From Eledone cirrhosa (lineage: Eukaryota): a stretch of 64,000 nucleotides of DNA. How positions within the stretch are numbered: the stretch's first letter is position 1; the number at the start of each line of letters is the position of its first letter. The stretch is from NCBI GenBank assembly GCA_964016885.1, contig OZ024763.1, positions 5,394,001 to 5,458,000 of the forward strand, read 5' to 3'. The translations under genes were made by a program, and so were the position numbers. The notes beneath the pieces were generated by a model. That model was not told the DNA's origin. It saw only the letters and a program-made list of their open reading frames with translations, and searched no databases. Shown piece by piece: positions 30,901-60,900 of the stretch.

Positions 30901-33900
30901 AAAACTGTTAAAAAAGTCACAATCTTCAGCCCATTTTTCTTCTTCTTCTTCTTCTTCTTCTTCTTCTTCTTCTTCTTCTTCTTCATATAACTACAAACCC
31001 TTTGATTCTTCATAAAATGACTAACATTTCTTTACCTTGTTCTTTTCACCCTACCCACACCAAACCACATTTCCCACCCACTTTTTTTTTCTAAACCCCT
31101 AAAACCCTGACTATCCCAAACTCCTGCATCTGTCACCTGACTATATACGTGGACCTCTCCAGGAGTAACAGTGAAGGACCCCTTCTTCAACAAAACCTCC
31201 TATATTTCCTACCCAGCCATTGACGATGGGCACAAGGTTTTAAATATTGACATCCTCATCAAACCCCACACCCTAGACGATGGAATTATTCTTTATGAGG
31301 GTCAACAACAGAATGGAAATGGAGATTTCGTCACCTTGCTTCTTAAGGATCACGGATACCTGGAATTCCGATTTGATGTTGGATCAGGTTAGTATGACAT
31401 TACTGTTGTGTGTTTCTTTTATCAAATTAGGGATTTTTTATTTAATCCTTTAGCATTTAAACTGGCCGTATCTAGCCAGAATTCTCTCACCTCTTTCTGT
31501 TCAAACCATAACTGGCCGTTCATACTGACGTTAAGGTATTGTTCTCAAAATAAATATTATCAAAATCTCATAGATTCAATATTATGTGAGGTAATTACGT
31601 GAAGTAAAGCCTCTACTGTGAAAATACAATAGTAAATATAGAGTAATGTAAATGTTATGTGAGATATTATGTGAGGTAAAGCCTCTACTGTGAAAATACA
31701 ATAGTAAATATAGAGTAATGTAAATGTTATGTGAGATATTATGTGAGGTAAAGCCTCTACTGTGAAAATACAATAGTAAATATAGAGTAATGTAAATGTT
31801 ATGTGAGATATTATGAGAGGTAAAACCTTTACTGTGAAAATACAATAGTATATATAGAGTAATGTAAATGTTATGTGAGATATTATGAGAGGTAAAACCT
31901 TTACTGTGAAAATACAATAGTATATATAGAGTAATGTAAATGTTATGTGAGATATTATGAGAGGTAAAACCTTTACTGTGAAAATACAATAGTATATATA
32001 GAGTAATGTAAATGTTATGTGAGATATTATGAGAGGTAAAACCTTTACTGTGAAAATACAATAGTATATATAGAGTAATGTAAATGTTATGTGAGATATT
32101 ATGTGAGGTAAAGCCTCTACTGTGAAAATACAATAGTATATATAGAGTAATGTAAATGTTAAAGGGTTAAATACTTTTTATTTGATGTCATGACAACACA
32201 ACACCCAGTTGCTCCTGTAAGGGGGTTATACTGATATCGTGACAAAAAATACACCCCGTCCACTCTGTAATGTGATCATGTAGTGCCACGAAATAAAGCA
32301 CCCAGTCCACCTTGTAAGGTGGTTGTGCCTGTGCATTGATTTCTTATATAGGCACAAGGCCAGTAATTTGGGGGAGGGGAAAGCCGATTAAATCGACCCC
32401 TGTGCGTAATTGGTGCATTATTTTATCGACCCCCGTAAGGATGAAAGGGGCAAAGTTAACCTCGGTGGCATTTGAACTCGGATCATAAAGGGCTGTAACT
32501 CTATGCTGCAAAGTATGGTGTCCAACCCTCTACCGATACTGCCAATCCACCGCCCTATTTTGTTGTGAAATATTAAGAATTATCTACAAGTTCCTCTTCA
32601 TTCTCCCCTCATTTCTCTCCCTCTCCCTGTTTTACCAGGTCCTGCAATCATCAGAAGTGCTGAACCAATCAAAATAAAGGAATGGGTCCATGTAAAACTC
32701 CATCGTGATGGCAACGTTGGTATTTTGCAAGTAGGTGATAGCGCTCCAGTCAAAGGTAAATTCCGTTCTTTATATTCTCAACATCTCTTTATATATATAT
32801 ATATATATATATATATATATATATATATATATAGATATATATAGATATAGATATATATATATATATATATATATATATATATATATATATAGATATATAG
32901 ATATATATAGATATATATATATATATAGATATATATAGATATAGATATATATAGATATATATATATATAGATATATATATATATATACATATATATATAT
33001 ATATATATATAGATATAGATATATAGATATATATATATATAGATATAGATATATAGATATATATATATATAGATATATATATATATATATAGATATAGAT
33101 ATATATAGATATAGATATATATAGATATAGATATATATAGATATATATATATATAGATGTAGATATAGATATATATAGATATAGATATATATTTATCTAT
33201 GCTGAAACAGTCCTCCTTATAGGCTACTCTAGGCCTGAACTGGAGAGACTGAAAATGATATCTCATATATATATATATATATATATATATATAGTTAAAA
33301 GAATAGAGGTGTAACACACAAGTTATTATATATTGGTAAACGGAATGGAAAATGCTGACAAATTGTTCACAGTTGAAAAATGGTTTAATTAGGAATAAAA
33401 GAGTATTAGTGATTGTATGGGTTAGTATTCAGTTGTGGTTTTAAGTTTTTAAGTTTTTACCGGTTGCGCATTTCTAAATGCTTTTCAAAAATAATTTTGA
33501 GATAGAGTGTCCGTGCAGATCAGAGCAAACAGCACGGACACTCTATCTCAAAATTATTTTTGAAAAGCATTTAGAAATGCGCAACCGGTAAAAACTTAAA
33601 AACTTAAAACCACAACTGAATACTAACCCATACAATCACTAATACTCTTTTATTCCTAATTAAACCATTTTTCAACTGTGAACAATTTGTCAGCATTTTC
33701 TATTCCGTTTACCAATATATAATAACTTGTGTGTTACACCTCTATTCTTTTAACTATATATATATATATATATATATATATATATATATACATACACACA
33801 CACATAAAAATAATGAAAATTATTGTGTACAGTAATATATATATATATATATGGTGGCTGCCAACTCGTTTTCGAGTACGGCCACTACTTTATATCCATG

Positions 33901-57900: not shown

Positions 57901-60900
57901 GATAAATAATCAATTAAACGGGGCAAATTTCAAAATGTAACTTTGAAAGAACAATGGATAAATGTTATTAATATTCCTTTATGAGGAATAGTCAGATAAA
58001 ATTTATCTAATCTTTCCTGTTATTCCTTGTATGTAACATTTATCCGTTGTTACGTTCAAAGTTACATTTTAGATTAGGGTCTGTTTAAATGATTATTTGT
58101 CTCTTGTTAATTTCTATTTATTAATATTATTAATATATATATATATATATATATATATATATATATATATCATCATCATTTCATCATTTCATTTTACGTC
58201 CGCTTTTCCCTGCTTGCAAGGGTGGGACGGGAACTGATTCTGGCTTGATTTCTACAGCTGGATGCCCTTCCTAACACCAACCTCATTTACAGTGAGTGCT
58301 GGGTGCTTTTTTGCCGCGGCACCTACACGACCACTTTGCAGTGGAATGATAAGGACCTCAGTCCCTATCATCTCATTTCTACAGCTGAGTAAACTGGAGC
58401 AATGTGAAATAAAGTGTCTTGCTCAAGGAAACAACACACCACCCGGTCTGAGAATTGAATCTCTCTCTATATATATATATAATACATGTATATAAATTAT
58501 ATAAATAGATTTTTGATCCATGAAATCAATGTGTGTGTATATATATATATATATATATAAAATGCTTACACACACACAGGTGTGTGTGTGTGTGTGTGTG
58601 TGTGTGTGTGTGTGTATAAGCATTATATATATATATGTACATATATAATATATATGTACACACAAATATATATATATATATATCACATATATGAATGTGG
58701 GAGTGTGTGTATATAAATATAAGACTATATAAACGTGTGTATAAATTCTTCGTCTTCCTATTAGATTCTTCACCTGGAAGTCGTGTTGGTTTGAATCTCC
58801 GCCAGCCCCTTTACTTGGGAGGTGTTGATCCCCGCTATAAAGTAGCCGATGGCACCAGCATTAATACTGGTTTCGTTGGGTGTATTGGAGAGGTAAGTAT
58901 TCTCCTTACTCAAGGTCAACATTTTAGGTTGTATGCTTCATACAAGGGCAGAATGAAAAGTTCATAGGTTGACCAAGATATTCTCATGGAATTACCAAAT
59001 GAGGTTTATTTTTCAATTTTTCAATTTTTCAATTTTTCAATATAGTCCCTGGAGAAAGTCGAAATTAGTGCATGCAAAGTTTCACAGCTCTAACATCAAC
59101 CCTTCACAGTGAGCCTATGAACTTTTCAGCTGACTGTGTATGTATGTATCTTAGTCTTAGATTCTCCTGTGCCGTTCAGTGCATCGGGCAGTAAGTATTC
59201 GCCAATGGTCGCGATCAGCAGCGGCTTTCTCATGTCCATGCCAAGTGATGTTGGCTGCTATCTGGTCTTTTTGGAATGTTTGTCACTAAGTGATCCTAGG
59301 GCAACCCTGCCTCCGTTTGCCACCAGGTGGAGTCCTGCTCATCGCTGTTTTCGAGTGTCGTTCGTTGGGCAGGCGCAGTATGTGGCCAGCCAGGCAGCAC
59401 CGGCACTCTGTAACCATCCTCTGTAGCATCCACGACACGGCTCTCTGCAGGATTTCCTCATTTCGCACTCGGCCATGCCAGAACACACGAAGGATCATTC
59501 TGAGTCACCACTGGTGGGAAGTATTCAGTCGTCTCTCTATCAATGCCGTGCTCTTCCAGGTTTCGCTCGCATAAAGCACTGTCGGCAACACGATGCTCTT
59601 GCACAGGTGCAGCTTCATCCTGGTGCTGATGTGTGAAGACGACCGGACTGTGCGCAACTGTTGGAAAACTGCGGCTCCTTTGCTGATCCGACAGTTGATG
59701 TCGAGCTCCATATCACCATTGCTTGCCAGGATGCTACCCAGATAGGTGAAGTGATCGACTTCCTCCAGGTCTTGTTGGTTGACTCTGATCGCTGGACCTC
59801 TGTTGTTGGCTGTTCTAATCCCCTTGGTCTTTGTGGTGTTGATTCTCAGGCCGATCTTTTCCGCACTCTCTTGCAGGGATGTTGTTAGGGGCTGCAGATC
59901 TGCATTGTCTTCAGCGATCAATGCGATGTCATTGGCAAATGCCAGGTCCCTCAGCCTTGACTGGCTTCTCCCTGAAATTACTAGACTGGGTCCTTCCTCT
60001 ATTCGCCTTGGCTGAAAAGTTCACAGGCTGCCCATGATACTCCCTGGAAAAAACCAATGCAGTTATTAATAATAAGAGTTGAAATTATTACATGCAATAT
60101 TTCACAGCTCTAGCATCACTCTTTCTTCATAGTCAGACTATGGATTTTTCAGCTGACTCTTTACTTATATATATATATATATATATATATATAAACAAGA
60201 AGTGTAAGTCAACAGGGTATAATTAGCTTCGTTTATTCATATTCGCTGCTATATATATTTCAGTGATAGCCATTATTCAACAGCTATGACCTCATCAGGC
60301 AGCAAGAACTTGAACAGAATAAAACAGGAAAACAATTTTGTTAATTCATTGATATGCTCAGATCCAGAGTGTGTTTTTAGGCCTCTGAGGAACTGAAAGC
60401 ATCTGATTTAGAATGAACAAAATTAAGATCCACAAGGTTCACATTTGTTCTCAGTATGGTGAACTAACTGTTGTGTTACTATTTCTATATATATATATAT
60501 AATAGAAGGAGCTTCTACAGGACTAGTACTGTTTCATTCAGATGAAATCTTCAGGAGCTTCCTGAAGATTTCATCTGAATGAAACAGTACTAGTCCTGTA
60601 GAAGCTCCTTCTATAAAATAATAAAAAAATTTTACTCTGCCATGTATTGAGTACCTTACTTACTGTGGTTATCCCCGACTCAACCCGGGACCTACGTATA
60701 TATATATATATATATATATATATGTTTTAGGTAATTCCGAAGAAAAAGCAAAGGAAAAAAGAGTGCTCTATGAATAGAACAGAGCTATTTAATTAGAAAG
60801 TGAGCAACACAATATCTAATTGTGTCTGATGAATGTTCTAGACATATATTAATATTGTCTGGGTTCCTGAAACCTTTGGTAATGGAGTAGTTATATTTTG

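Follow-up and report, generated by a model that had tools for sequence, protein, structure and literature searches.

The 64,000-nucleotide (nt) window analyzed here (contig OZ024763.1, positions 5,394,001–5,458,000 of the forward strand) carries part of a perlecan (HSPG2) gene, the second LG domain (LG2) of which is interrupted by a 26,009-nt gap between coding exons. Within this gap, we identified two small exons, A and B, which are almost certainly real, exon B being followed by an intron with a non-canonical GA donor. The two exons, the GA-AG intron and the variability of this site throughout the molluscs constitute a new variant of LG-domain splicing, the inserts themselves being already present in public isoform models. 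The classical examples of LG-domain splicing with an effect on binding are agrin and neurexin, and domain V of perlecan is treated as fixed apart from proteolysis. With its mollusc-wide variable LG2 site, perlecan would join them as a third LG family that makes use of this segment, from another intron.

Two small exons in the long LG2 intron

Eighteen coding exons were mapped in the window, encoding Ig repeats and then LG-EGF-EGF-LG-EGF-EGF-LG. This domain order and the orthology to named perlecans identify the gene, at the sequence level, as the domain IV-V part of perlecan from an octopod. The window exons tile the Octopus bimaculoides perlecan isoform X4 (protein P0200, a separate thing from the window-side sequencing run X4 mentioned below), the LG and EGF exons showing 76–95% identity; from the exon identities we infer that the window species is a related octopod. 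Exon 31163 is identical to P0200 at 70 of 74 residues, exon 32639–32755 at 31 of 38 (and to P0197 at 32 of 38), and exon 58765–58892 at 39 of 42. The first two bases of the latter, AT, finish the split codon as Asp. The gap between these last two exons (32756–58764) is bounded by GT..AG and interrupts LG2 in phase 1, and the exon borders are those proposed in the first-pass annotation, made from the sequence alone. That annotation had also put the gap at about three times the length of any other intron, which agrees with the 8,334 nt found for the second longest of the 17 gaps between the mapped exons (ratio 3.1). In the transcript containing both A and B, the gap consists of three introns of 4,927, 12,651, and 8,359 nt. 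The features discussed are listed in Table 1.

Table 1. Coordinates (window numbering) of the exons and donors at the LG2 site.
Feature	Position	Strand	Characteristics and support
Constitutive LG2 exon preceding the site (coding exon 14 of the window)	32639..32755	+	Ends in phase 1; single copy in assembly G000
Exon A	37683..37721	+	39 nt, phase 1-1, 13 residues ending Arg-Gly; strong acceptor, weak GT donor; X4 RNA contig and P0200 match
Exon B	50373..50405	+	33 nt, phase 1-1, 11 residues, acidic; X4 RNA contig with 0 mismatches and P0200 match
Non-canonical GA donor (AG/GAAAGT) of GA-AG intron 50406-58764	50406..50411	+	Sequence and DNA contigs
Conserved element with second, GT donor at 50468	50453..50473	+	Matches the last residues of the N-terminal part of P0003 (squid-like)
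Constitutive LG2 exon following the site	58765..58892	+	Covered by X4 RNA contig; spliced to 61402 (GT..AG)

Four sequencing runs were used. Runs X1, X2, and X3 are DNA from one sample (S1), possibly the source of the assembly, while X4, from sample S2, was taken to be RNA because its contig has spliced joints. This 1,447-nt contig, which is 1,447 nt long, passes from 58890 directly to 61400 over a GT..AG intron without any mismatch, and segment 50373 forms the loose end ahead of exon 58765. Aligned to 50255–50560, the same contig covers 50371–50405 and runs on into exon 58765, and its upstream loose end, before 50371, is the 3' part of segment 37683. The alignments were placed clear of the long tandem arrays and of the intervals 32639–37800 and 45140–47340. 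Since the loose ends of a single contig match A, B, and 58765, exon A is spliced to exon B and exon B to exon 58765, and the segments at 45290, 46319, and 47295 are skipped there. Upstream of exon B, the contig has 236 letters, 30 of which are displayed and 37 of which are assigned to exon A; the remaining 199 would fit exon 32639–32755 plus 82 nt of the preceding exon, and we infer the junction between 32755 and 37683 from P0200 and the length of the contig. The RNA evidence consists of this one contig from one run, the tissue of which was not recorded, and contigs drop rare forms.

The comparison with O. bimaculoides points in the same direction. The 24-residue insert of P0200 splits into 13 + 11 residues: exon A is identical to the first part at 9 of 13 positions and exon B to the second at 9 of 11, each being the best of 10,080 intron segments (scores 47 and 42, respectively, versus 15 for the next segment in both cases). 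Exon A was also the best of 1,460 segments when compared with the inserts of the squid-like proteins described below, in a ranking based on generic splice weights. Those weights were replaced in the final scoring by weights trained on the window's 18 exons. With the latter, the donor of exon A scores 2.7, near the bottom of the range of the 18 exons (2.4–10.6), and exon B scores 4.6 at its acceptor and 8.9 at its donor with the GA itself left out. Both exons are stop-free multiples of three in phase 1-1, and therefore preserve the reading frame.

Neural microexons of the SRRM3/4 (eMIC) programme are 3–27 nt long, or up to 51 nt by a wider definition, and have a UGC motif just upstream of the acceptor. 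Exons A and B exceed the 27-nt limit and fit only the wider definition, and no TGC was found within 40 nt upstream of either acceptor.

The first-pass annotation had pointed to five segments of the intron as a candidate combinatorial, possibly neural, set of cassettes, and all five were found in the sequence as it described them. Two are exons A and B, and the RNA contig bears out the splicing of the 33-nt segment at 50373, which had been listed on condition that a GA donor was used. The other three have no RNA or homology support. As a class, the five segments do not exceed the number expected by chance: the 26-kb intron holds 189 AG..G/GT segments that are in phase 1-1, stop-free and up to 99 nt long, compared with 233 for its reverse complement and 229 for 34 kb of sequence from the other introns. 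The summed splice scores of 45290, 46319, and 47295 are reached by 5–8 segments in the intron (candidate included), 7–9 on the reverse strand, and 6–8 in the other introns, whereas that of 37683 is reached by 2, 0, and 0 segments, respectively. A neural code of five exons, in which these three segments would be used in brain, is very improbable, since they are skipped in the X4 contig, absent from P0200, devoid of homologues and of background splice strength. In its favor, two of the five candidates did prove real, the tissue of the run is unrecorded, and the rare variants dropped by contigs could include it. The first of the three (45290..45382, + strand, 93 nt) is a Thr-rich CAC/ACC microsatellite adjoining a 23-nt array and encodes an unpaired Cys. 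The second (46319..46321, + strand, 3 nt, ATG) combines a good donor and a branch-point-like motif with a poor acceptor, and its rare use may still be conceivable, as rare variants are lost from contigs. The third (47295..47336, + strand, 42 nt) also has a good donor and a poor acceptor.

Three further segments were rejected. Segment 46344–46379 (36 nt, in frame, ending in Arg-Gly before a GT) was the second-best match to the squid-like inserts in the ranking based on generic weights, but its acceptor scores -5.0, it is skipped in the X4 contig, and the match is possibly due to chance. Segment 57404–57421 has the top splice sum with the 18-exon weights, yet it is skipped in the X4 contig; its homologues were sought only within the ranking against the P0200 insert. 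A five-residue match at about 36010 is in the wrong phase and has no acceptor.

The GA donor of exon B

The GA is present in genomic DNA: contigs of X1, X2, and X3, all of sample S1 and possibly of the animal used for the assembly, span the donor with 0 differences over 50255–50560, and it is therefore not an assembly slip. The site occurs in one copy in the 3.0-Gb genome assembly used for the copy counts (G000, in which the window lies on C24). At the junction between exon B and exon 58765, three letters fit on either side, which allows four possible cuts. Only the cut at 50405 gives GA..AG, the other three giving TA..AT, AG..TT, or GG..TA. The X4 contig matches the window up to 50405, after which come the opening bases of exon 58765, as expected if the GA-AG intron is spliced in RNA.

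Donors of this kind have been described elsewhere. RNA-supported GA donors have an upstream AG and a downstream A, a context which AG/GAAAGT fits (PMC7072748). The GA-AG introns of the human FGFR genes, Eurytemora affinis and Oikopleura dioica resemble the present one in having GA at +1/+2, the same upstream AG and downstream A, and splicing in RNA (PMC7072748, PMC5714493), but here the intron follows a mollusc exon that is small and cassette-like. The GT dinucleotides closest to the donor are also located downstream here (+5 and +63), whereas in FGFR a GT is reported six nucleotides upstream. The present case adds an RNA-backed GA-AG intron in a cephalopod, in a class that is missed by most annotation.

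One might suppose instead that the GA is a loss-of-function allele private to the animal that was sequenced and is never spliced, the RNA having come from an animal with GT. The DNA (S1) and RNA (S2) do come from different samples, contigs drop heterozygous variants, and the X4 contigs do not cover 50409–50463, on the intron side of the donor, so that the RNA allele is not displayed. The agreement of AG/GAAAGT with the context of the RNA-supported GA donors (PMC7072748) makes this explanation improbable, and a long-standing weak donor would explain the presence of the conserved GT donor 62 nt downstream.

The insertion site in molluscs and in the LG fold

The survey of inserts covered 29 full-length perlecans, 19 of them molluscan; P0203, which ends before the site, was dropped, leaving 18 scorable mollusc sequences, and one isoform was counted per cluster, which makes the absence of an insert a weak observation. 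An insert of 5–38 residues is present at the site in 10 of these 18 perlecans (8 being without) and in none of the 10 non-molluscs subjected to the same search. Outside this survey, the nemertean P0043 has an insert of 8 residues. The spacer from strand to strand is otherwise nearly fixed at 39–40 residues. Judging from their sequences, the bivalve, gastropod, and cephalopod inserts are not clearly alike, and it is the position that is common to them.

Three forms occur among the cephalopods. The octopod-like P0197 has the direct junction with no insert. A Logan cluster of five proteins, sister to the octopods in the quick version of the tree (Shimodaira-Hasegawa approximate likelihood-ratio support 100) and probably belonging to squid or cuttlefish, has in four of its five members an A-like insert of 15 residues alone, with the motif Arg-Gly-Asp (RGD) at the junction. 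P0200 and the X4 contig have A+B. In one squid-like species, the homologue of exon 58765 is preceded by different exons in P0002 and P0003. Both forms are also found in oyster: P0194 and P0013 carry a 27-residue insert, which the Logan proteins P0007 and P0016–P0020 lack, P0007 and P0194 being identical at 744 of 748 positions. Included and skipped forms within one species were thus seen in oyster and in one squid-like species, while the window species is represented by its one A+B contig.

These comparisons suggest that the two exons are probably used alternatively in the window species. If they were instead constitutive in octopods, LG2 would have a fixed 24-residue surface loop and no switch, and the P0197 model without an insert would be an annotation miss. 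Small exons and a GA donor are indeed easily overlooked by gene models, and the sole spanning RNA contig and O. bimaculoides X4 both carry A+B. We consider this unlikely in view of the alternative use of the site in oyster and the two upstream partners in one squid-like species. The exon donors also argue for alternative use, that of exon A lying at 2.7 in the 2.4–10.6 range and that of exon B being non-canonical, and the direct junction of 32755 to 58765 preserves both the frame and the canonical spacer.

In bivalves (P0042, P0184, P0187, P0192, P0194, P0195, and P0013), the inserts are 27–38 residues long, rich in Tyr and Arg, and end in R-X-K/R-R, which we take to be a furin-type motif. Such an insert is also a possible heparin-binding patch. 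Dreissena P0188 has a 5-residue insert in place of the long bivalve type. In Biomphalaria, the first 11 insert residues of P0011 and P0201 agree, after which the two sequences part, a hint that gastropods may have several small exons here.

The first-pass annotation had equated the site with agrin y and neurexin splice site 4 (SS4). The segment is indeed common: in the alignments to agrin LG2 and neurexin LNS6, and in the loop of the P0002 model, the insert lies within the strand J-K segment of the LG domain. The intron positions are not equivalent, the perlecan site being 4–5 residues upstream. In the neurexin alignment, SS4, at what we take to be its position in LNS6, comes about 5 residues after the perlecan site. 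In the agrin alignment, the Gly of GESP stands opposite the split residue, and KSRK starts 4 residues later (8s9p versus 3pve). Sequence alignment thus supports a common segment and separate introns.

The AlphaFold2 model of P0002 (38 rows, mean predicted local distance difference test score, pLDDT, of 87) places the insert at residues 128–142. The pLDDT is under 50 at residues 126–141, which is the only such internal stretch, and the model suggests that the LG fold would tolerate the insert as a loop. A fold search confirmed the LG folds.

Agrin KSRK lies between strands J and K and is associated with weaker dystroglycan binding, and neurexins bind better when they are free of insert (PMC6450144). 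The agrin y/A site resembles the present one, since it, too, is a short insert that keeps the frame and is placed in the strand J-K segment, within the second LG domain of a proteoglycan of the basement membrane (PMC6450144; PDB 8s9p, 3pve). It differs in that the perlecan intron splits a codon 4 residues before KSRK and holds two exons instead of one, and that their product is not basic. SS4 is likewise a cassette insert in the same LG/LNS segment that changes ligand binding (PMC6450144), but neurexin is a membrane receptor with known neural regulation, and its site lies downstream, as described above.

With these precedents in mind, the exons might be used alternatively in the manner of agrin y and SS4, the bulk and charge they add at the edge of LG2 altering dystroglycan, heparan sulfate, or calcium-dependent binding, and any RGD being incidental. 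The effect of the agrin and neurexin inserts on binding (PMC6450144), the strongly basic, KSRK-like bivalve inserts devoid of RGD, and the distance of only 4 residues from agrin y are consistent with this explanation. It is nevertheless rather unlikely: the inserts of octopods range from neutral to acidic instead of being basic, exon A retains its terminal Arg-Gly in both groups of cephalopods while the remainder of the exon has diverged, and in gastropods, too, an RGD is found at this place.

Perlecan isoforms arising by exon skipping or alternative ends are known in Caenorhabditis elegans unc-52, Drosophila trol, and human miniperl, but these variants involve no peptides inserted inside the LG fold of domain V in the accounts cited, as far as the parts available extend (PMC6266596, PMC13423992). 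In the literature searched on perlecan splicing, mollusc or cephalopod perlecan, and octopus microexons, which left most subscription papers outside, no description of the perlecan LG2 site was found in the parts available. Perlecan is not mentioned in the available main text of bioRxiv 10.64898/2026.09.05.749416, the exon tables of which include O. bimaculoides and may list these exons.

Putative RGD switching and the second donor

Exon A ends in Arg-Gly plus one G. Completion of the codon by AT from exon 58765 gives Asp (RGD), and completion by CC from exon B gives Ala (Arg-Gly-Ala, RGA). Four squid-like proteins read RGD at this junction, while P0200 and X4 read RGA, the only insert form seen in octopods. 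RGD also lies within the insert in four of the six gastropod insert records (Littorina, Biomphalaria P0201, Bulinus, and Arion), but not in Elysia or in the truncated P0011.

The exons could accordingly act as a switch, the split codon making or breaking RGD; from the sequences compared here, we regard this function as having a little less than an even chance. If the weak GA donor makes exon B skippable, octopods would make three products: plain LG2 with neither exon, a form with A alone presenting RGD in a flexible surface loop, and an A+B form with RGA and an acidic spacer. The A-alone form is predicted to bind an RGD-type integrin, which would provide this domain, otherwise a ligand of dystroglycan, with a second way of engaging receptors. 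Such a device would be compact, a single split codon being read as Asp or Ala depending on the next exon. RGD motifs are known in other perlecans, in domain III of the mouse protein and in exon 7 of UNC-52; the latter is present in all the major isoforms and is not formed at a junction (PMC6266596, PMC7252330).

Several observations weigh against the proposed switch. The single RNA contig, from a single run of unrecorded tissue, displays one form (A+B); A alone was seen in no octopod, both octopod insert records (P0200 and X4) reading RGA; and P0197, being a gene model, may have missed two small exons. As the RNA and DNA samples differ, the RNA donor animal may have carried a GT allele. No RGD is present in the bivalve, Elysia, or nemertean inserts, and RGD occurs 2–7 times per full-length perlecan checked, with a chance-like scatter. 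In C. elegans, one perlecan RGD was changed or deleted and integrin localization was normal in the allele described (PMC7252330). The RGD Asp (residue 143) in the P0002 model sits in a beta-bridge at the end of the loop, which may limit access.

The second donor downstream of exon B was recognized from P0003, in which 19 hydrophobic residues at the start are followed by a Tyr and then by the homologue of exon 58765, and which is identical to P0002 at 336 of 336 residues downstream. P0003 reads GVCLC, Tyr, and then this homologue. In the window, GICLC followed by T/GT is found at 50453–50469, and joining 50467 to 58765 would yield GICLC and then the same Tyr as in P0003. The GICLC match scores 31, the next among 657 T/GT or T/GC sites scoring 14, and this score was reached in 0 of 100 shuffled introns; the five-residue window was picked after the match had been seen, and at 8 residues the site ranks second. 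The fact that the X4 contigs do not cover 50409–50463 is no evidence against this donor.

Two readings of the second donor can be considered. In the favored one, use of this donor lengthens exon B to 95 nt and brings in a stop at 50411–50413, the start of P0003 being a by-product and its hydrophobicity being explained by U-rich sequence. In the less favored one, which is possible but doubtful, the donor would close an internal first exon from which a secreted tail is produced; no signal-peptide first exon with a strong donor turned up when one was sought. The exported short tail, if it exists, would resemble endorepellin but arise by transcription, not by proteolysis. A broader scheme, which we consider distinctly unlikely, is that of a multi-way mollusc switch at one point of LG2. 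The split codon of cephalopods would toggle RGD, the conserved GA donor would tune the RGD-breaking exon, and the second donor would end an internal first exon with a hydrophobic peptide exporting the short tail (half LG2-EGF-EGF-LG3); in bivalves, the same tail would be freed through cleavage at the R-X-K/R-R with which the insert terminates.

Some observations concern the surroundings of the site. Tandem and simple repeats account for 9.0 kb (35%) of the 26,009-nt gap, which includes minisatellite arrays at 40398–42562 (96 nt x 22.6), 42985–45131 (23 nt x 93.7), 51284–51665 (21 nt x 18.1), and 51766–52923 (48 nt x 24.4). Long and near-perfect inverted repeats seen by eye at about 33290–33770, 48930–49230, and 57130–57310 are probably remnants of non-autonomous transposons. 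A degenerate open frame at 59508–60020 (- strand), multi-copy in the DNA runs, resembles what we take to be a reverse-transcriptase fragment of a long interspersed nuclear element. The 99-nt EGF exon 22730–22828, adjoining the 8.3-kb intron, is missing from P0200 and Mya P0185 and present in P0197, P0005, and Mya P0186, and from this distribution it is likely to be a second cassette exon in domain V. Among other LG proteins, the Branchiostoma pikachurin isoform pairs P0024/P0009, P0028/P0023, P0029/P0031, and P0032/P0030 differ by an insert of 26–27 residues between the last EGF and LG3, at the position of the agrin z/B site (site described in PMC6450144).

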